Shown here one piece after another: positions 42,859-54,755 of a DNA stretch of 64,000 nucleotides (the stretch's first letter is position 1; each line of letters starts with the position of its first letter). This DNA is from Candidatus Undinarchaeales archaeon (lineage in GTDB: Archaea > SpSt-1190 > JASMDC01). The stretch covers positions 128,001-192,000 of the forward strand of contig JASMDC010000001.1 of assembly GCA_030753015.1 (NCBI GenBank), given 5' to 3'. A program made the position numbers and the translations under genes. Below the pieces are notes generated by a model. It saw nothing but the letters and a program-made list of their open reading frames with translations, had not been told where the DNA came from and searched no databases.

Positions 42859-43320
42859 GTGCGGAAGCTTTCCTTCACGCTCCTCCTGCTCGTCCTCCTC
42901 ACCACTGCAGTGAACAACGCGCCCGTGTCCGGTTTCGGCAAGGCGCTGGACTTTGACGGAACGGACGACTTCGTGAGCGTACCGGACCACAGCAGCCTCC
43001 AGATCACCGGATCGATCACCGTCGAGGCTTGGATCAGGGCCGCTGCCTGGACGTCTGAGTCCCATGAAGGCACCATCGTCAGCAAGGAGGAGTGGCCGGA
43101 CAACGTGCGTAAGGGATACGTCCTCAGGGCGGGGGAGAACGGTAAACTCTCCTTCAGCATCGCGATCGGTGACAACTGGCCGGAGGCCGTCTCCTCCCCG
43201 ATCATGTTCACCCACACGTGGCATCACGTGGCGGGGACCTTCGACGGCACCAACATCAGGGTCTACATCGATGGTACATTACAGAACACCACCGCGGTCC
43301 GCGTTCGACAAAGCAGCTGA
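42859..43320 (+). pseudogene. Signal peptide plus LamG (concanavalin A-like) domain; N-terminal part of a disrupted gene
   Basis: RKLSFTLLLLVLLTTA; ALDFDGTDDFV, ITVEAWI, WHHVAGTFDG..IRVYIDG. Confidence 0.75.
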
Positions 43321-46300
43321 ACGAACTCATCTGGCGAAAGGGAAAAGGCAAGTGCATGCACTTCATCCGGGCACTGGCCGCGAAAGGGTACGTAGAGCGC
43401 CTTGGCTTCACGGGTTCATATCGCCTCAACGCCGATGAGGGGATGCGCGTGTCGGCCTTCCTGGCCGCTTCCGGGCTCGGGACCGTTGTCGAGCCGGTCA
43501 TCGATATGATGCTCGGTGGCCTGGAGGACGTGACACGGGAGAAGGACGTGAGAGGGGTCGAGACCGCCACGAGCCGCCCGCGCAGGAACAGGTTGTCCAT
43601 TCTGCTCGACCAGGAGCTCGTGGAGACGCTCTCACAGCGGCCGCCAGAGGGATTGATGGGCGACTGCCTGCTCTCGCGCCTCTTCCTCCAGCGGCTCCAG
43701 GTCGAGGACCCCTCCCTTGCAGATGAGCTCGTCTCAACCTACCAGCTCCTCCTCCTCCTTCAGCATGGACCGCTCCTCGCCGGGGAGGCCGACTGGCTAC
43801 TTTGGGAGGAAGGTGTCGGAAGGGGCGAGAAGTTGCTCAATGGCCTGCTGGAGCGTGGCTACCTCGACAAGGAGGCCGCCACCGGCCGCTTCTTCCTCAG
43901 CCCCGACGAAAAGGAGCATGACTCGGCCTACCTGATCCGGACCGGTCTCCTGTCCGTCATCGATCCTGTCCTCGACATGATACTCGGTGTGATCGAGAGG
44001 ACTCCCGCCGAGGTCGAACCTGTCGTCGCTCCCACGAGTGCTGCGTACCGGCACGCGCACCGTAGCTTCGCCAACGTCCTCGAGCGCGAGATCAATCGTG
44101 GTCTCGCCCGGCTCTCAGCGGAGAGCATCGAGGATAAGTGTCTGTTAGGGAGGTTGTTCACGGACCGCTCGCGGACGACGAAGGCGGAGGAGCTCCAGAA
44201 GTTCGCCGAGGTCTACCGGGGCGTCCTCGTGCTCTACCGGACCCCCGCCACCGCAGAGGAGCTCGACCGTGTCCTGTGGGACGAGGGCGAGGGGAAGGGT
44301 GCCTCCTATATGGACGCTCTCGTGGCGAAGGGCTATCTGGAGCGTCGTGGTGAGCCCGCACGGGCCTTCCTGGTACCCGATGAACGGAGGAGGACAATGG
44401 CCTACCTCCAGCGCACAGGTCTCGAGGGACGGCTCGTACCCGTGCTCGATATGATGCTCAGGCATGCGGGCGTGCGACAGCTCCCCGTCCAGATCGTGGA
44501 GGAACTGACAAAAGAGCTCCCGCGGCCCCCGACACCTCCGACACCGACAGGCGAACCTGCGCTGTCATCGCCGTCAGCCGTGCCGACGCCGCCTACGCCA
44601 CCTGCCCCTGAGGATGTACAGTTCCCGCCCTCCCGGTTCAAGCCGCCCAAGCGACTGATACCCGACAGGTTCAAGCCGCCGAAAGCGCCGGAAGAGCCGG
44701 ACAGGTTCAAACCACCGAAGGGCCGGACGCTCCCGGAGGTACCTGCTCCGATCGAGGTGATCGAACCGACAGTCGTGCCAACACCACCTACCCCACCGAC
44801 CGTGCCAACACCACCTACCCCACCGACCGTGTCGACGCCACCCACCCCGCCGACCGTGCCGACGCCACCCACCCCGCCGACCGTGCTGACGCCACCTGCC
44901 ACAGAGGAGTTTCCGTCCCCACCCACTCGGTTCAAGCCGCCCAAGCGTCCGACGCTTGACAGGTTCAAGCCGCCGAAGATGCCGAGCCAGCCGGACCAGT
45001 TCAAACCACCGAAGGGCCGGGCGCTCCAGGAGGCACTTGCTCCTGCTGAGGCTGTCGTGCCAGTGCAGGAATCCAGGGCCCGAACCCGCCTATCGCTCGA
45101 CCTCGACGAGCGGCTCTTGGCAGCGGTCCCCCGGCTCACGGGAGATGCGCTCAGCGATCCGTCCCTGGTAGCGAAGGTGCTCGCCGACGGCTCCAAGGTA
45201 ACAGATGGAGGGCTAAAGGCAACGCTATCCGAGCTTGTGCAGGTGCTGCTCCTGCTCGACCGCGGCCCCATCGCTGAGGATGACCTTGACCAAGCTGTCT
45301 GGGAGGATAGCGGCAGGGCACACATGTGTCTTTCGGCGCTGGCTGAGACAGGCCATGTAGAGCGTATGGGAAGGACGGGCCGATACGTCCTCGCGGTGGA
45401 CCAGCGACGAATGACCGGGAAGTTACTCGAGCGCACCGGCCTCAGGGATTTAGTGAATCCAGTGCTCGACGAGATGGTCAGGAGAGTACGTGAGCGGCCG
45501 CGACCGAAGGTCAAGGCACCTCCCCGGGAGACCGTGCAGAAGGAGAAGAAGGACGTCCCCCTACCCGAGAAGGTCGTGCGCGAGGTCGCCAGGCTGGTAG
45601 CGGCCAACACCTACGCCAACATAATCGAGCGCGAGCTGAACCGGGCCTTGACAAAGCTCCCATTAAAGGCCCTGAAGGGCGAATGCCTCCTATCCAAGCT
45701 GTTCCGTGAGCGGATCAGTGCCACCGATGTTGAGAGCATGTGTAAGCTGGCAGAGGTGTACCGCGTCCATCTGGTGATCTACCGGACCCCGGTCACAGCA
45801 GACCAGCTCGACCGTGTCCTCTGGGGCGAGGGGGCCGGCAAGGGCGTGTACTACCTTGAGGCGCTGAAACTGAAGGGCTACGCCGAGCGGGACGAGAACG
45901 GCCGCTATGCTATGTTGCCCGAAGAGCGAGAGGCGATCGGATCGTTCCTGGACCGCACGGGTCTCGATGAGCGGCTCGTTCCCGTTGTCGACATGATGCT
46001 CGGTCATTCCGGGATGAGGCCCGCGCCTGCTATCACTCGGCCAGCAAAGGTGGTCGCTCCACCGAAGCCACCGAGACCGAGGAAGCTCCCATCCCCACCG
46101 AAACCTCCGAGGCCGAAGGACGTTATTCCACCACCCGAGAAGAAGGTAGTCCAACCATCTAAGCCCCCACGTCCCCGTCTGCTGGAGCGCCCACCCTCTC
46201 CGCCCAAGGTCGAGAAGGTAACACCTTCTAAGGTTCTCCGTCCCCGTCTGCTGGAGCGCCCGCCCTCTCCGCCCAAGGTCGAGAAGGTGACACCCCGTCC

Positions 46301-47552
46301 CCGTCTACTGGAGCGCCCGCTCTCTCCGCCGAAGGTCGAGAAGGTGGCCCCTCCGAAGCCCCCTCCTCCCCCTCTGCTGGAGCCTCTGCCGGAACCGATC
46401 CCAGAGAAGGTCGCCTTGCCGGAGGCGACGCGTCCGCGCCTGCTGGGGCCCTTACCCCCACCGGGATCACGGGAACCCTCCGAACCCGCAATAGGTACGC
46501 TCCGCGCTCTTGCGCAGCGGTTCCTGTCCTGGGCCACACCGCCCAAGCCGCCGGCCGCACTCGAGGCGCTCAGGTCGCGCAGGCTCCCGAGACCGTCGGA
46601 GGGACCGGTCACTGTATCAAAGACAGCCCCACCGATAAAGGCCGAGCCACCCCGATCCCCGGCGCCGCCAATGGGTTCCGGGGCCCTCGAGGCCGTCCTC
46701 AAGGCAGTGCTCTTCGACCGCTCGACCAAGAGCCTTGCCGGGAACTGCCTCCTGGCCCGGATGCTCGTGGACCACAGGCGGACAAGTGGACCCGAGTCAG
46801 AGGGCAAGCTAATAGAGCTCAACCAGGTGCTGCTCGTGCTCTCCCGGGGCCCGATCACCGCAACGGACCTCGACCGTGTGCTCTGGTCCGAGGGGGCCGG
46901 CAGGGCAAGCACCTACCTCGGTGCCTTGGAAGAGGGCGGGTACGTGGAGCATCTCGGGCTGACAGGCCGATACCTCCTGGCACACAGGGAGCATGAGCGG
47001 ATGGAGGATTACCTGGACCGTACGGGACTCGGGGAGGACCTTGGGCCTGTACTCGACACCCTCCTTGCGAAGGTGAGGCCGGGACATGCCCCGGATGCAG
47101 CGTCCAAGGTAAAGGCTCGTGGGGCTGTGGCCGACCAGGGACTGAGCGACATCCTGGACACGGAGCTCGTGGAGGCCATACACCGGCGGGATCCCGACGA
47201 CCTCAGGGGCGATAGCGTACTGGCGCGAACGCTCGATGACCTGAACCGCGCCGACGATCCCCTGGCCGCACGCCGGCTCTCAGAGTTCGGGCAGGTGCTG
47301 ATGGTGCTCTCCCGGGGCCCCATCACATCAGATGACCTCGACCGCGCGCTCTGGTCGTCCGGCGCCGGCAAGGCATCATCCTATCTGGAGGAGCTGATGG
47401 GCTCAGGCCACATCGAGCGGCTCGGGGTGACGGGACGCTACATCCTCGACCTGGACGAGCAGGAGCATATCGAGGCCTATCTCAGGCGCACCGGTCTCGG
47501 CGACAAGCTGGGACCGCTCCTCGACAGGGTGGCCCGGTCCGGACCGGAGTAA
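43290..47552 (+). CDS. Tandem ~130-aa wHTH-like repeat protein (6.5 copies) with Pro-rich linkers; 5'-truncated
   Basis: Repeated L..GP.T..ELD..LW..G.GKG..YL..L...GY.ER....GRY.L...E......L.RTGL.....PVLDMML; the meaningful frame begins mid-repeat. Confidence 0.8.
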   Translation, partial: HRGPRSTKQLNELIWRKGKGKCMHFIRALAAKGYVERLGFTGSYRLNADEGMRVSAFLAASGLGTVVEPVIDMMLGGLEDVTREKDVRGVETATSRPRRNRLSILLDQELVETLSQRPPEGLMGDCLLSRLFLQRLQVEDPSLADELVSTYQLLLLLQHGPLLAGEADWLLWEEGVGRGEKLLNGLLERGYLDKEAATGRFFLSPDEKEHDSAYLIRTGLLSVIDPVLDMILGVIERTPAEVEPVVAPTSAAYRHAHRSFANVLEREINRGLARLSAESIEDKCLLGRLFTDRSRTTKAEELQKFAEVYRGVLVLYRTPATAEELDRVLWDEGEGKGASYMDALVAKGYLERRGEPARAFLVPDERRRTMAYLQRTGLEGRLVPVLDMMLRHAGVRQLPVQIVEELTKELPRPPTPPTPTGEPALSSPSAVPTPPTPPAPEDVQFPPSRFKPPKRLIPDRFKPPKAPEEPDRFKPPKGRTLPEVPAPIEVIEPTVVPTPPTPPTVPTPPTPPTVSTPPTPPTVPTPPTPPTVLTPPATEEFPSPPTRFKPPKRPTLDRFKPPKMPSQPDQFKPPKGRALQEALAPAEAVVPVQESRARTRLSLDLDERLLAAVPRLTGDALSDPSLVAKVLADGSKVTDGGLKATLSELVQVLLLLDRGPIAEDDLDQAVWEDSGRAHMCLSALAETGHVERMGRTGRYVLAVDQRRMTGKLLERTGLRDLVNPVLDEMVRRVRERPRPKVKAPPRETVQKEKKDVPLPEKVVREVARLVAANTYANIIERELNRALTKLPLKALKGECLLSKLFRERISATDVESMCKLAEVYRVHLVIYRTPVTADQLDRVLWGEGAGKGVYYLEALKLKGYAERDENGRYAMLPEEREAIGSFLDRTGLDERLVPVVDMMLGHSGMRPAPAITRPAKVVAPPKPPRPRKLPSPPKPPRPKDVIPPPEKKVVQPSKPPRPRLLERPPSPPKVEKVTPSKVLRPRLLERPPSPPKVEKVTPRPRLLERPLSPPKVEKVAPPKPPPPPLLEPLPEPIPEKVALPEATRPRLLGPLPPPGSREPSEPAIGTLRALAQRFLSWATPPKPPAALEALRSRRLPRPSEGPVTVSKTAPPIKAEPPRSPAPPMGSGALEAVLKAVLFDRSTKSLAGNCLLARMLVDHRRTSGPESEGKLIELNQVLLVLSRGPITATDLDRVLWSEGAGRASTYLGALEEGGYVEHLGLTGRYLLAHREHERMEDYLDRTGLGEDLGPVLDTLLAKVRPGHAPDAASKVKARGAVADQGLSDILDTELVEAIHRRDPDDLRGDSVLARTLDDLNRADDPLAARRLSEFGQVLMVLSRGPITSDDLDRALWSSGAGKASSYLEELMGSGHIERLGVTGRYILDLDEQEHIEAYLRRTGLGDKLGPLLDRVARSGPE
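44520..45020 (+). repeat. Coding tandem repeats (PTPPTV)n and six (R/Q)FKPPK motifs
   Basis: 18-bp unit ccgaccgtgccaacaccacctacc-like; ggttcaagccgcc repeated. Confidence 0.85.
46165..46350 (+). repeat. Coding tandem repeat RPRLLERP(P/L)SPPKVEKV x3
   Basis: cgtccccgtctgctggagcgcccaccctctccgcccaaggtcgagaagg-like unit three times. Confidence 0.85.
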
Positions 47553-49998: not shown

Positions 49999-50759
49999 TT
50001 GAGCACGCCCTCGTCACCAGCCTCGTGCAGGCGGACGGCGGCCTCCAGAGCGCAGGTGATGGCGTTGTTGGTGCCCGGAGTAGTGTCGATGTCCGAGAAC
50101 GGCTCGCCCTCGGCGGTCTCGCCCACGGCCACGAGCACGGTGCCCGCCTTGCATCCGCGGATCTGGGCGACCACGAAGATCGACGCTGACTCCATGGAGG
50201 TGGCCAGCACGCCGGCCTTCTTCCAGAATTCCCACTTCTTCTCTAGGTCGACACCGATGGGTATGTCAGCGGGCTCCTCGATGTAGAATGCGTCCTTGAC
50301 ATGCGCCAGGCCGATGTGGTACTGGTAGCCCTTGTCCCGGGCGGAGAGCCGGAGTGCGTCCATGACGTCGATGTCGGCCACGGCGGGAAAAGAGATGGGC
50401 ACGTACTGGCGGCTGGTCCCGTCCTCGCGAACGGCCCCGCTGACTACGACCAGGTCGTTGAGCTTGACGTGCGGCTGGAGCGAGCCGGCGGTGCCCACCC
50501 GGATGAATGTGTCGGCGCCCACCTGGATGAGCTCTTCCACGGCTATGGCAGCCGACGGCCCGCCGATGCCCGTGGACGTTACGCCGATCGGTACTCCCTT
50601 ATAGCTGCCCACGAAGGTGGTGAACTCGCGGTTCTGGGCCAGCTTGCGCGGATTGTCGAAGAACTTGGAGATGTACTCAGCACGAGCGGGATCGCCGGGA
50701 AGGAGCATGATCTTGGGGACGTCGCCCTTGTTCAGCCCGATGTGATAGGTGTCGGCCAT
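49995..50759 (-). CDS. udp: Uridine phosphorylase (nucleoside phosphorylase family)
   Basis: LLPGDPAR, QNREF, STGIGGPSAAIAVEEL, IRVGTAG, MESA. Confidence 0.88.
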   Translation of the reverse strand: MADTYHIGLNKGDVPKIMLLPGDPARAEYISKFFDNPRKLAQNREFTTFVGSYKGVPIGVTSTGIGGPSAAIAVEELIQVGADTFIRVGTAGSLQPHVKLNDLVVVSGAVREDGTSRQYVPISFPAVADIDVMDALRLSARDKGYQYHIGLAHVKDAFYIEEPADIPIGVDLEKKWEFWKKAGVLATSMESASIFVVAQIRGCKAGTVLVAVGETAEGEPFSDIDTTPGTNNAITCALEAAVRLHEAGDEGVLK

Positions 50760-50971
50760 GGGGGGCTTGGGGACGGTACAGTTTGATATAGGTTACGACT
50801 ACGGGAGGGGCGGCTCCTGTGCAGATGATGCCTCGAACACAGCGAGGTCGATGACGAGTTCACTGGATACAAGCTTGAGATTCATAATGATAGGGTAAGC
50901 AGTTAGGGCCTGTAAACTGATTACTATATCATTTAGAATTCGTCAACAATCCAGACACCAGAAATGACATC

Positions 50972-51118
50972 GCATAACCACTATTATCGCGTCGTGGTGG
51001 AAATTCGGTAATTCGGATATCCACATGGGCGTTATTCAGGCTGAGGGGGCGACAACGTAGGTGTGCCTCTTACAGTCATTTGGAAGGAAAAGCGACGTCG
51101 GATAACCCCTTGTTATAC
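50972..51118 (+). other. Integron attC-like site 1
   Basis: R'' GCATAAC ... R' GTTATAC, 147 bp; inner dyad ttatcgcgtcg/cgacgtcggataa. Confidence 0.7.
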
Positions 51119-51178
51119 GGCGTTGGCGTTCTTGGTAAAGAAGGTTATTTAGCTTAGGCTTGTCATTTCTGTATACAC

Positions 51179-52156
51179 ATGCCCTTTGCCAGTCCATTGA
51201 GTTCCCTACTTGCTATAGGGCTTATTGCATTTGTATGGATTGTGCTCTCGTGGGAGATAGTTTTCATATTTCTTACAATAATGAGAAAGATTCCAGGAAA
51301 GCTGCTCAAAGATCATTTCAAAGAGGAAAAATACCGAAAGCTCATCTCTTCAAAACCAGCTTGGTTGATGCACATTCTCTTCATCTTTGTAATTATTTGT
51401 CTTTTCTGGGGCTATCTTGTAGAACCCTATCGTTTACATATTGAAAGAATTCAAGTTGAAACGAAGAAGATAGCAGCTGGGAGTACCGTCCGAATCGTAC
51501 ATTTAACAGACTCTCATTCCGTTGGAAGAGTCCGCAACGAAGCAAAGGTGACGGAGCTTGTTACATCCTTGAATCCAGATATCGTCGTCTTTACAGGGGA
51601 TGTACTCTCTGCTCCCGAAGGGCTTCCCATGTTCAAGGAAATGATGAAACCATTGTCTGCGCAAGGCGGAATCTTTGGAGTCAAAGGGAATTGGGATGAA
51701 TGGTACTGGAATGAAATGGACCTCTTTGGGGGGACTCCAATAAAGGAACTGAAATCGGACCATGTCAATGTTACAATAAGGAATCAGACGATCTCTGTAA
51801 TTGGAATTGGATTCGGACGTGAGATGTTATTGGAAGAATCAATTGAAGGAATCCACGAAGAACAGTATAAGATCCTTCTGTATCACAAGCCCGATGAGAT
51901 AAAGAATGCAAGAGATCTTGGAATAGACCTCTATCTCACAGGTCATACTCATGGGGGTCAGATAAGATTGCCATTCTATGGGGCAATGATGACGCTATCG
52001 GATTATGGTAAGAAGTACGAATCGGGGTTATTCAGAGAAGGAGATACAACAATGTATGTTTCTCGAGGGATTGGTACAGAGGATGATGGTCTACTTCGAG
52101 CTAGGTTCCTTTGCCCACCAGAGATTACGTACATAGAAATAATTGGTACGGGTTAA
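51179..52156 (+). CDS. Membrane-anchored metallophosphoesterase (YkuE/YaeI-like), integron cassette gene
   Basis: TDSH, FTGD, GNWD, LYHKPD, GHTHGGQI, VSRGIG; visibly AT-rich relative to flanks. Confidence 0.92.
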   Translation: MPFASPLSSLLAIGLIAFVWIVLSWEIVFIFLTIMRKIPGKLLKDHFKEEKYRKLISSKPAWLMHILFIFVIICLFWGYLVEPYRLHIERIQVETKKIAAGSTVRIVHLTDSHSVGRVRNEAKVTELVTSLNPDIVVFTGDVLSAPEGLPMFKEMMKPLSAQGGIFGVKGNWDEWYWNEMDLFGGTPIKELKSDHVNVTIRNQTISVIGIGFGREMLLEESIEGIHEEQYKILLYHKPDEIKNARDLGIDLYLTGHTHGGQIRLPFYGAMMTLSDYGKKYESGLFREGDTTMYVSRGIGTEDDGLLRARFLCPPEITYIEIIGTG

Positions 52157-52169
52157 ATACGTCAATGCC

Positions 52170-52312
52170 GTATAACGGTCCGGTGCCATCCGACGCGCCG
52201 ACGTCTAGCGAAGGAGAGCGAGGTTCAAATCTGTCCCACTCAAGTAGATCGTCGGCGTGTTGGCGGAGGGCCGACGGGACGGAGGCCCGGAGCCGGATGC
52301 ATTGAGTTATAC
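52170..52312 (+). other. Integron attC site 2
   Basis: R'' GTATAAC ... R' GTTATAC, 143 bp; L boxes tgccatccg/cggatgca with one extrahelical base; gacgcgccgacg/cgtcggcgtgt stem. Confidence 0.85.
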
Positions 52313-52375
52313 GCCGTTGTCCTTTGGTTTTATTAATGTGAATTGAGTTAACTACATAGAAGGGGAATCAATAAG

Positions 52376-52582
52376 ATGTATGGTTGGAACTTATCAGATA
52401 TTCGATGGTGGGGAGGAAAGGTCGATTATCTTACTAAACTCTTCCTTGGAGTTCTTTTATTTGATATGGCTCATGTATTAGTTTACAATAGAACGCATTT
52501 CTTATTGGATATAATATTAGTTATCTTACCTGTGATTATTGGGTTAATATCATCATGGCAGTTGGAACAAATTACTACTTAG
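52376..52582 (+). CDS. Small hydrophobic protein, integron cassette gene
   Basis: AT-rich 68-aa ORF with 2 hydrophobic segments between attC sites; may be a decayed longer gene. Confidence 0.55.
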   Translation: MYGWNLSDIRWWGGKVDYLTKLFLGVLLFDMAHVLVYNRTHFLLDIILVILPVIIGLISSWQLEQITT

Positions 52583-52609
52583 GGATATTATATACGAGTG
52601 GACAATAGC

Positions 52610-52687
52610 GTATAACTACCTATATCTGCCCTTTTTGTTCCGATGAAGTGTCCTTCGTCCTTAGTCGTGTATCGCCCCTGATGCGCT
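52610..52687 (+). other. Left part of a third attC-like site, interrupted
   Basis: ggacaatagcGTATAAC is the near-complement (15/17) of the cassette start GTTATACgccgttgtcc; no matching R' before the mobile element. Confidence 0.6.
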
Positions 52688-54435
52688 CTAGGTATCTTCA
52701 CTTTCCGAGATCATTGCAGATGAGTCAAGTTTTCGGAGCCCGTTTCGAAAGCATCGCCCCATCGATGATCTTCCCGATCTCGCGGTCCACGTCCCTGAAG
52801 GCGCGTGCGAGTGGTCGAGGGATCGGGTCGTCGGGCTCCATCGCTGCAAAACCCGGACCGAACACGCGCGCATTCATCTTGGTGAAGAACATCGACACCT
52901 TCATTCCGTACGGCGTGAGGAGGTAGCTGTTTGTGTGGGGCACACGCCAGATGATACCCTTCAAGCGGAGCCGACGCAGGTCGTACGTCATCTGGCCGCT
53001 CAAGTAGGTCGTATGTCCATCATCAAGTAGGTCAGCCATCCCCATGCGCAGGTCCTTATGGGTGAAGCCGTGCGCTGCATGCAGGAACAAGGTGAGCGTC
53101 AGGAAGAGGCACATCACGCGCTTGTCACCAAAGCGCAGGCCTGACGCCCGTCGACCGTCTTCCGTGACGGTGGGCTGCACCACACGTTCCACGCCCTCCT
53201 GCGAGAGGGCACAGTCCTGGCTGACGCGCTCGACGTCAAGTAGACGCCGGTTCGTCATACGACCGATCTTCTGGAGATAGGGAAGGTTGTCGAGTCCCTT
53301 GTTCACCCTGAAGTCCTTCGGGTTGTTGATGGTGGTCTCCGTGCGAAGAGCACGGTTCTCCTTGAAATACTGCTTGACTTGGTTCCTCTTGTAGTTGAAG
53401 TGGAGGCTGGGATGGACGCCCTGATTGATGACCCTGGTCCGGAACTTCCCGGGAGTGGCCTTCGTGATGCGGCGGTCGAACACAACACTGATGCCGTCGG
53501 GCCTCCCCAGATCGATGTTCTCCCTTATGACGCCCTCAAAGAACCGTCTCCCGTTCTGGGGACGGTCGAAGACCTGGGTGCGGCTTACCTCCATTTGCCA
53601 GATGGAAAGCTTGTGACCGTACCCCGCTTCGATGCTCTCGTCACTCAATGGCCAGGGAAGACGTTCCCGCCATCGGGTGAAGAACTCCCTGATCTGCGTG
53701 GGACCGAGCCGGTCACAGATCTCTTGTAGCCTTTCGGGGTCGGTGCAGGAGCGGAAGCCGTTGTCCAGCGGCTCGAAGGGGATGCCCTCCTTCCGTAGTT
53801 GCTGCTTGGCCCACTCATGGCCGTTCAGGCAGACCTTGACCGGGAAGGGGACATAGGTGCAGACCTTGATGAACCCGGGACCGAACTCCTTGTCCTTGAT
53901 GTAGAAATAGATGTGGTTGACATTGGCTGGCTGACGAGAGAGATCAAAGTAAACACGGCCCTTCTTCACCTTCTTGTACCCCTTGAAGGCTATCGCCCGC
54001 TCCTGGGCTATGCCGATGAAGACGACACCCTCCTCCTTATCGAACTTCTTGAGGTACTTGGCGGCGATGTCGTCCTTGCGTTCACCACGCTTGAAGTGGA
54101 TGATGGGGGTGTAGTTATCTCGTGCGAAGAGCTCGACGCGTGCCTTGAAGGTCGTCGTCATCTTCTTGAACAACGCAGGTGAGGGAATGGGATAGCCACG
54201 CTCACGAAGGTAGTAGACGAGTTGTCCGGATGTCTGGAGTGTGGGGATGTAGCCGTTCAGGTAGATCCTGTCCATGCACTCGATGTCGAGCGTCACATGC
54301 TTGGAAAGGAGTTCGTTGATATTGACGGCCATCAGTAGTGATGAGGCTCCTGAGAGTTATCCCTCTTTCCATGAGGATGACTAGCCTTTGTTATGCCATT
54401 GATTCACTCGACGGTTTGAGGCGAAGCTTCGCTAG
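52688..54435 (-). mobile_element. CTAG-bounded IS-like element with non-canonical transposase
   Basis: CTAG at 52688 and 54432; palindrome gcgaagcttcgc next to one end; AAAACTTGACTC over the stop codon; no terminal IRs. Confidence 0.6.
52725..54332 (-). CDS. Putative transposase/Rep-like protein with C-terminal wHTH
   Basis: DRIYLNGY, NGHEW, DNGF, KQYFKE.RALRTETTIN, TYDLRRLRLKG.I.RVP.T..Y.LT. Confidence 0.75.
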   Translation of the reverse strand: MAVNINELLSKHVTLDIECMDRIYLNGYIPTLQTSGQLVYYLRERGYPIPSPALFKKMTTTFKARVELFARDNYTPIIHFKRGERKDDIAAKYLKKFDKEEGVVFIGIAQERAIAFKGYKKVKKGRVYFDLSRQPANVNHIYFYIKDKEFGPGFIKVCTYVPFPVKVCLNGHEWAKQQLRKEGIPFEPLDNGFRSCTDPERLQEICDRLGPTQIREFFTRWRERLPWPLSDESIEAGYGHKLSIWQMEVSRTQVFDRPQNGRRFFEGVIRENIDLGRPDGISVVFDRRITKATPGKFRTRVINQGVHPSLHFNYKRNQVKQYFKENRALRTETTINNPKDFRVNKGLDNLPYLQKIGRMTNRRLLDVERVSQDCALSQEGVERVVQPTVTEDGRRASGLRFGDKRVMCLFLTLTLFLHAAHGFTHKDLRMGMADLLDDGHTTYLSGQMTYDLRRLRLKGIIWRVPHTNSYLLTPYGMKVSMFFTKMNARVFGPGFAAMEPDDPIPRPLARAFRDVDREIGKIIDGAMLSKRAPKT

Positions 54436-54755
54436 TATACGAAAGAACAGTCATACTCCAGTAGTCCGATAAAATCTCAGCAACGTCTTTATCACGAACT
54501 CGATGTCCGATATAAGTCCATGTCGCATTTTTATCCGAACGTCCGAGATGACGGACCCGGTCCTCGTCATGTATCCGACTTGCGGTTCGGATATCACAGG
54601 TCCCTTATAGACCCGATCCATCCGCTCCGAAACCCTTATACCTTCACGCCGTCTACTTCTTTATCGAGGCGGATGACCGCACATCGATGTAAGAGCCTAA
54701 CCGGGCTATGACAGGACCTAGGGTAGGAGACGCCTCGCTTCCTTCTGTCAGAGGC

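Follow-up and report, generated by a model that had tools for sequence, protein, structure and literature searches.

How did two AT-rich genes, each set between inverted repeats, come to lie in a low-GC island of a GC-rich archaeal chromosome? The island (positions 50881-54611) belongs to a stretch of 64,000 nucleotides from a Candidatus Undinarchaeales archaeon (contig JASMDC010000001.1, positions 128,001 to 192,000), which as a whole is referred to here as the window. The original prediction was that both genes had been captured by integron-integrase (IntI) type recombination, and that the locus is a cluster of attC sites lacking an integron integrase (CALIN). We see that the two genes indeed behave as mobile cassettes, and that the island probably counts among nine or more small cassette platforms in an integron-like system which is native to this archaeon. 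The system is an integron-like cassette system of a new variety and not a textbook CALIN, working by a mechanism that we infer.

GC content over 50880-52690 is 0.37-0.49, compared to 0.60-0.68 in the flanks and 0.60 in the genome, whose completeness is estimated at 98.9%. The genome is archaeal, as shown by a gene for ribosomal protein S19e, the model of which matches archaeal controls only. The stretch is present in 20 marine or seawater sequencing runs from 12 studies, and six runs were flagged as possible sources. The cassettes, their genes and the site that lies between them are as follows.

51112-52176, plus strand: cassette 1, limited by 18-nt inverted repeats (51112-51129 and 52159-52176) that are 89% complementary
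51179-52156, plus strand: metallophosphoesterase gene in cassette 1 (325 aa, membrane-anchored, Pfam Metallophos)
52170-52312, plus strand: attC-like structured site ('site 2'), 120.8 bits and E 8.6e-29 with a covariance model, in the order GTATAAC, 6-nt spacer, L stem, inner stem, side hairpin, L stem partner, 4-nt spacer, GTTATAC
52306-52616, plus strand: cassette 2, limited by 18-nt inverted repeats (52305-52322 and 52600-52617) that are 89% complementary
52376-52582, plus strand: hydrophobic open reading frame (ORF) in cassette 2 (68 aa)

The inverted repeats at both cassettes have the cores GTTATAC/GTATAAC. A 14-nt end motif, allowing up to two mismatches, occurs four times in the window, always at a cassette end and on alternating strands, while six further matches at three mismatches are at chance level (shuffle mean 5.0 for three or fewer mismatches). 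The exact 7-mers GTATAAC and GTTATAC are not enriched across the genome (112 observed against ~215 expected). Because repeats, boxes and GC are all confirmed, the earlier description of what can be observed was accurate: two genes are bracketed by inverted repeats, and there is no integrase gene in the window. The statement that a site precedes each gene stood only in part. The boxes are in place (GCATAAC at 50973 and GTTATAC at 51112 for the first site, GTATAAC at 52170 and GTTATAC at 52306 for the second), but the sites themselves are unlike, having only these end boxes in common. Site 2 folds better than its shuffles (DNA z -2.5 and -1.8); site 1 folds no better than its own (DNA z -0.5 and +1.4). 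What had been taken for a first attC site is instead the right half of a conserved ~240-bp element with nine copies in the genome, described below as the left end of the platform, and there is no truncated upstream cassette. ARAGORN found no tRNA within the island, where site 2 does contain a T-arm-like word, and an Rfam scan of 50000-53500 (E up to 10) gave a single chance-level match.

Site 2 does have the architecture of an attC site, with boxes, spacers and a second stem, and with 129 nt between its boxes. Its L boxes had been described with one extrahelical base. This fits a pairing made by eye, wherein TGCCATCC (52184-52191) pairs with GGATGCA (52295-52301) and leaves one C unpaired, but the covariance-model alignment of the L stem differs, having two non-standard pairs instead of the unpaired C. 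Relatives of site 2 are numerous in the genome: a profile search gave 32 matches at E up to 1, of which 27 have E of 1e-5 or less, and a covariance model (R1) gave 28. These sites are not scattered, and stand in arrays between short genes, with five on contig C53 (starts 560-890 bp apart), five or six on C87 (a 7.4-kb low-GC contig) and five or six on C82; further sites are on contigs C26, C23, C115, C29, C70 and C24. In the window, the R1 model finds one full site (52166-52316), the next best match being at 51096-51122 with 11 bits.

Structure statistics were obtained from an alignment of 22 full sites from the genome. For a structure combining box pair, L stem, inner stem and side hairpin, paired cells amount to 87.3%, compared to 33-44% when the partners are slid, and the covariation score of 0.435 (0.06-0.13 with partners slid) was reached by none of 500 shuffles. 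Both sides have changed in 18 of 29 pairs; in the L stem this holds for five of the six pairs, with 86% of cells paired. The triplet AAC is present in 20-22 of the 22 sites and GTT in 21-22, and the spacers measure 6 nt in every site and 4 nt in 19. In textbook attC sites, the boxes read RYYYAAC and GTTRRRY, and length is usually up to ~141 nt. The box consensus found here, GTTRTRY, fits this in part (position 3 in 8/22 sites, position 5 in 5/22), and the sites of this genome are 125-151 nt long. On the strand as drawn, G:T pairs exceed A:C pairs by 73 to 21, or by 52 to 21 minus one invariant pair, and therefore a fold of that one strand seems favoured; base composition could contribute. The unpaired apex of the long sites (A3 columns 54-100) holds a conserved word, AGCGA..GCGAAGTTCA, in the place of which the short sites of an archaeon from another family (genome G017, sites of 88-99 nt) have 3-11 nt. 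A metagenome scan with a 19-nt consensus word gave 116 stretches, of which 80 were retrieved, and two of these 80 hold true sites.

At either end of the island are conserved platform elements, the right-hand one being split by an insertion.

50881-51111, plus strand: conserved left platform element (LE), ~240 bp
50880-50939, no strand assigned: terminal palindrome of LE, 25-nt arms (80% complementary) around a 10-nt loop
50966-50995, plus strand: LE core site A, a 13-nt arm ending in ATAAC, then 4 nt, then an inverted arm starting with ATTAT
51092-51118, plus strand: LE core site B, an arm ending in GGATAAC, then 5 nt, then GTTATAC; the start junction of cassette 1
52617-52691, plus strand: left part of the conserved right platform element (RE), directly after the ..TAAC box of the last cassette
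52692-54431, minus strand: insertion splitting RE, 1.74 kb, with CTAG at 52688-52691 and at 54432-54435
54432-54611, plus strand: right part of RE

There are eight full copies of LE in the genome and a ninth that is cut by a contig end. Every copy borders a low-GC island, and these islands measure from 1 kb to over 3 kb. The terminal palindrome is kept in six of the eight aligned copies, its left arm being replaced in the other two, and core site B reaches only 11 bits (E 0.34) with the covariance model of the sites. The two parts of RE adjoin without a break in the sister species (genome G001, same genus) and at the two places on contig C73 that hold a copy, and variant copies on C53 and C23 carry clusters of three of the 8-mer TCGGATAT, which has 96 occurrences in the genome. 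A whole-genome DNA search of the relatives found LE and RE in G001 only, and profiles of the two elements had no match in the six loci from G001 and G017 that were scanned first. LE was also considered as a structured RNA and rejected, as consensus folds of both strands gave positive (penalising) covariation terms, with double changes in only 4/57 and 1/44 pairs. A third cluster of three TCGGATAT words is found at G000 C47:8817-9174, outside the mapped platforms.

The original prediction held that each cassette starts with the complement of its own end, and this is general in the arrays of this genome. Across 14 pairs of ends from one cassette, complementarity is 5.64/7 in the box and 6.21/12 in the flank, compared to 4.63/7 and 3.84/12 for 470 other pairs (Mann-Whitney p=0.002 for the flank). 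As some of the 14 pairs extend across partial sites left out of the count, the real signal is probably stronger. Between the two ends of one site (n=22), complementarity is 4.59/7 in the box and 4.14/12 in the flank, and this flank match is no better than that of random pairs (4.14 against 3.84 of 12, p=0.14); the three outer box positions also pair poorly within a site, with 7-12 of 22 unpaired. The match of a cassette's own ends is as predicted by exchange at the triplets, and argues against a self-contained repeat element. These values bear on the possibility that we are looking at miniature transposable elements, or at small transposase-driven transposons with terminal inverted repeats. 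The inverted repeats of 17-19 nt that bracket each gene would suit such elements, as would the neighbouring insertion with its large ORF. However, the flanks within a site match at random level, so the site is not an element with terminal repeats of its own. Moreover, all sites are in arrays and none is scattered, no target duplications were seen at the cassette ends, and the ORF of the insertion (535 aa) is single-copy and interrupts RE. Taken together, the data make a transposon origin highly improbable.

Comparisons between related sequences indicate where exchange happens. Two sites of the genome are identical to metagenome contigs rightwards from ATAAC or AAC, with different left flanks, and one pair of sites is identical leftwards up to AACGGAT and different beyond. 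An independent seawater run, X7, has a contig with site 2 and the beginning of cassette 2 in which the end of a different cassette precedes site 2, the junction falling precisely at 52170, the GTATAAC box; the present assembly lacks this form. One further pair of sites is, by eye, identical only rightwards from the GTT box, and the homology between LE copies stops just after the GTT at 51112-51114. As breakpoints fall at AAC and at GTT, both triplets appear to be exchange points, unlike the single-point rule of integrons (G|TT of the R' box, on the bottom strand). Contigs from four runs have the arrangement seen in the window, and one joint listed in the runs connects 54453 to 54565, one side of it being 22 nt.

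The sister species provides a direct view of cassette turnover, since both platforms are at the same chromosomal places there, within flanks that are 89-91% identical, and hold other cassettes. At the locus of the window, G001 has only the first 100 nt of LE, to which a different 1-kb cassette is joined exactly at core site A; the ..TAAC of that cassette directly adjoins the host flank. At the C73 locus, G001 has LE, one 245-bp cassette without an ORF, and RE, where the present genome has 620 bp. The claim that the cassette genes are not vertically inherited is thus supported by a different cassette at the orthologous locus, and the only paralogue of the phosphoesterase elsewhere in the sister species is 27% identical to it. 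This gene has no orthologue in G001 or G017; identity to its nearest database relatives does not exceed 48%, and those with names are bacterial.

Linked to the arrays are recombinase genes, of which this genome has three copies encoding 360-377 residues (a tandem pair on C31, a single one on C76) and a fragment, all of them beside arrays or at contig ends. The copies have diverged, with 49% identity to the query copy P0001. By sequence, the best solved relative is the IntI of V. cholerae (2a3v, E 2.9e-44), but the alignment skips the IntI-specific additional region near patch III, the recombinase having 23 residues where IntI has 65. Scores with the XerA model NF040815 (224.7 and 237.7 bits) are over the cut-off of 220, and those with the integron-integrase model TIGR02249 (220 and 234 bits) are under the cut-off of 265. 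In this genome, G001 and G017, the TIGR02249 matches skip positions 182-232, which structural alignment identifies as the IntI-specific insertion. The predicted core structure (mean predicted local distance difference test score, pLDDT, 83.7) matches XerA and IntI equally well. Residues 1-90 make up an extra N-terminal domain, for which there was no Pfam family and no fold-search match, the fold matches covering the core only. No canonical IntI was found in the 98.9% complete genome, neither as a TIGR02249 match covering 182-232 nor as any other candidate. With no IntI, and with linked recombinases that lack the insertion and pass the XerA model, the capture of the two genes by IntI-type recombination that had been proposed is unproven.

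The arrangement of an array, ..TAAC, RE and a recombinase gene on the opposite strand recurs on C53, on C76, at the end of G001 contig C14 and on G017 contig C32. The array on C53 ends in a variant RE, two toxin-antitoxin pairs and the recombinase fragment, and the end of G001 C14 has the same order with the recombinase gene intact. On G017 C32, two 88-90-nt sites are followed by ..TAAC, an RE-like stretch sharing the CATATCCGACA/GTCGTATA motifs and, ~100 nt further on, the recombinase. In both C73 copies, the DNA beyond RE reads by eye as the C-terminal SPLD end of a recombinase on the other strand, although the remnant at C73:100708 scores weakly (E 0.6). Platforms appear to decay through loss of the recombinase. 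The copy on C76 (L003, C76:912-1991) is interrupted by one in-frame TAG, and the fragment at C53:13553-13801 comprises the last ~83 residues only. Upstream of two of the recombinase genes (C31:1082-1437 and C76:1992-2400) there is ~300 nt of conserved non-coding DNA in which the ATCGCCCCTRAAGCC motif of RE recurs; this DNA may be a promoter, an RNA or a binding region.

Co-occurrence of sites and recombinase was surveyed in 61 archaeal genomes, comprising our own and 60 relatives. Sites are present in three of them, namely our own, G001 and G017, and full-length recombinase matches that include the N-terminal domain were obtained in exactly these three, with core-only Xer-like matches in 16 others. 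Kin are not independent, and so this co-occurrence amounts to two lineages. A search for related loci from a two-row alignment, with the own genome excluded, gave 80 loci at up to 48% identity, mostly bacterial.

The same survey bears on whether the locus is, after all, a true integron remnant, in which ordinary attC sites are served by a canonical IntI that is missing from the assembly or has been lost, and the XerA-like genes are neighbours by chance. The sites have the attC layout, those of G017 are within the usual attC length range, and Ghaly et al. (2022, PMC9668308) describe most archaeal integrons as CALINs, with six IntI genes among 75 genomes. A CALIN is defined there as two or more attC sites that are separated by less than 4 kb and have no integrase close by; the window itself, which has one full site, falls short of this rule, and the label does not hold for it, although clusters with such spacing exist on other contigs of the genome. 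Against a remnant stands the lack of any integron-integrase match covering positions 182-232 in our own genome, G001 and G017. The XerA-like recombinase adjoins arrays in all three of the site-bearing genomes, and its full-length form is absent from the 58 genomes without sites. Recombinases near attC sites that lack the insertion region are not counted as IntI by Cury et al. (2016, PMC4889954), and breakpoints at both boxes also misfit. We therefore consider an integron remnant unlikely.

A recombinase that passes the XerA model invites a different explanation, which we judge quite unlikely, in terms of modules like the plasmid dif (pdif) modules of Acinetobacter. Here, a host Xer enzyme would act on double-stranded dif-like palindromes, and the 110-137 nt between the boxes would be an unrelated passenger, such as a transcript end or a small RNA. 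The LE core sites resemble dif in being short and palindromic, with arms of 13 nt and an interval of 4-5 nt from AAC to (G/A)TT; in XerA sites, a 6-nt spacer has been described as separating the two binding sites (PMC3646895). Acinetobacter is already known for gene modules that lie between inverted Xer-type half-sites and are exchanged among replicons, and the excess of G:T over A:C on one strand (73 against 21) is explicable by RNA too. Yet the insert is always exactly between the boxes, and the distances from the boxes to its outermost stem are 6 and 4 nt in almost every one of the 22 sites. As double-stranded DNA, a site would hold its arms over 110 bp from each other, a distance that a recombinase dimer could not span without the insert folding out, and there was no match to an Rfam family. 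The Acinetobacter modules, as described, use plain 28-bp double-stranded XerC/XerD sites on bacterial plasmids, without a folded insert, whereas in the present system only the two core sites of LE are short.

XerA in its usual form is a single housekeeping copy of ~280-300 residues that serves one chromosomal dif site. The recombinase core found here resembles the XerA/dif systems (NF040815; 4a8e, 5hxy) in passing the XerA model and in folding like XerA, and LE core sites are short dif-type palindromes. Unlike XerA, however, it is present in three diverged copies and decayed ones, with an added N-terminal domain, near cassette arrays and toxin-antitoxin genes. It is because the main sites carry a folded insert that the system differs from both plain Xer/dif recombination and the Acinetobacter modules.

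The integron-like cassette system that we favour could operate as follows. A platform consists of LE with its two short palindromic core sites, one or more cassettes, and RE, followed in the fuller copies by a recombinase gene with its 3' end facing the array. The XerA/IntI-like recombinase would cut at the AAC and GTT triplets of a site folded as a hairpin or cruciform, and would excise cassettes in circular form, with the ends of each cassette brought to either side of its site as matching arms. The same enzyme may then insert cassettes into LE, at its short core sites, or at RE, whose repeated TCGGATAT-like motifs are candidate accessory binding sites.

Several observations weigh against this proposal. 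Breakpoints at both boxes (at AAC in three comparisons and the run contig, at GTT in the LE copies and one pair judged by eye) misfit the one-strand, one-box rule of integrons and do not give the array a polarity. No excision product was seen in four runs, but these are assembled contigs and are blind to rare circles. LE and RE are without a clear integron counterpart and the proposal does not account for their own mobility, nor does it give a role to the conserved apical sequence and the conserved side hairpin of the sites. The link to the recombinase comes from three genomes, two of them from one genus. Finally, the recombinases are the only matches to the XerA model in the genome at E up to 1e-10, so that one of them could be the housekeeping enzyme of chromosome resolution, and its adjacency to arrays could be hitch-hiking.

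Integrons are the best-known gene-capture machines, and what defines their integrase is a single inserted domain for reading folded DNA. Much of their cassette logic is seen here, with arrays of short genes that are mostly of unknown function or of toxin-antitoxin type, and with imperfect palindromic sites that have conserved AAC/GTT, a second stem, unpaired spacers and a variable apex. As in integrons, structure is kept more than sequence and sites are alike within a genome, exchange happens at the triplets, cassette content varies between close relatives, and a tyrosine recombinase close to IntI is found at one end. The differences are as follows: the recombinase lacks the IntI-specific insertion, has an extra domain of ~90 residues and is encoded with the 3' end of its gene facing the array; the matching arms of cassette ends extend past the 7-nt box by ~12 nt; the sites are long, with a conserved side hairpin and apical motif; breakpoints fall at both boxes; and many small platforms (nine LE copies) are spread over the chromosome, and nothing equivalent to their conserved LE and RE ends is known from integrons. 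As the defining integrase test fails, we file the system neither as an integron nor as a CALIN. An 'integron-like' subgroup of recombinases, in which the insertion is not fully conserved, is described by Smyshlyaev et al. (2021, PMC8138268).

A wider reading is that this is a second kind of archaeal integron, with a XerA-derived recombinase that lacks the IntI insertion and has gained an N-terminal DNA-binding domain, and that uses folded attC-like sites, possibly on either strand, together with short dif-like core sites on small scattered platforms. We offer this tentatively, and think it somewhat more doubtful than probable. If true, it would explain why an IntI is missing from most archaeal 'CALINs', and would provide a living model of how integrons originated from Xer systems. 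In the open full-text literature searched, we found no description of archaeal cassette arrays served by a XerA-type recombinase; the present genome could be among the 75 of Ghaly et al. The long branched sites, the N-terminal domain of the recombinase and the many scattered LE/RE platforms would be new, as would two orthologous loci with different cassettes and breakpoints at both boxes. That the cassette logic of integrons appears with a recombinase lacking the inserted domain bears on the evolution of folded-site recombination from Xer/dif systems, on which enzyme serves the integrase-less cassette clusters of Archaea, and on how archaea take up bacterial-type genes such as this phosphoesterase.

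With regard to cargo, 22 of 49 ORFs in arrays and islands have a Pfam family, and parts of toxin-antitoxin systems (ParE, Phd, RHH, nucleotidyltransferase/HEPN) are commonest. Two TATA-binding proteins, PKD, MerR/GyrI, DsbA-like and cupin families are found as well, among others, and the same cargo profile is reported for archaeal integrons (Ghaly et al. 2022, PMC9668308). The phosphoesterase of cassette 1 has YaeI/LpxG-like matches below the cut-off, and the 68-aa hydrophobic ORF of cassette 2 matched no family. The two TATA-binding protein genes are full-length, one at L017:2703-3284 (C53, between attC-like sites) and the other at L016:384-965 (in the island on C44, beside LE); both are genes of the archaeal core type that ride as accessory cargo.

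The 1.74-kb insertion that splits RE is separate from the cassette system. Its GC content is host-like, and its single ORF (52725-54332, minus strand, 535 aa) matches no family in Pfam or NCBIfam and occurs once in this genome. In the Atlas, this ORF falls into clusters without a family, of which the taxonomically assigned members are all bacterial, most commonly Actinomycetota, and it may represent an undescribed transposase family. Elsewhere in the window, a 1444-aa ORF at 43218-47552 consists of repeated winged-helix-like modules with proline-rich repeats of the PPKPPRP type between them.

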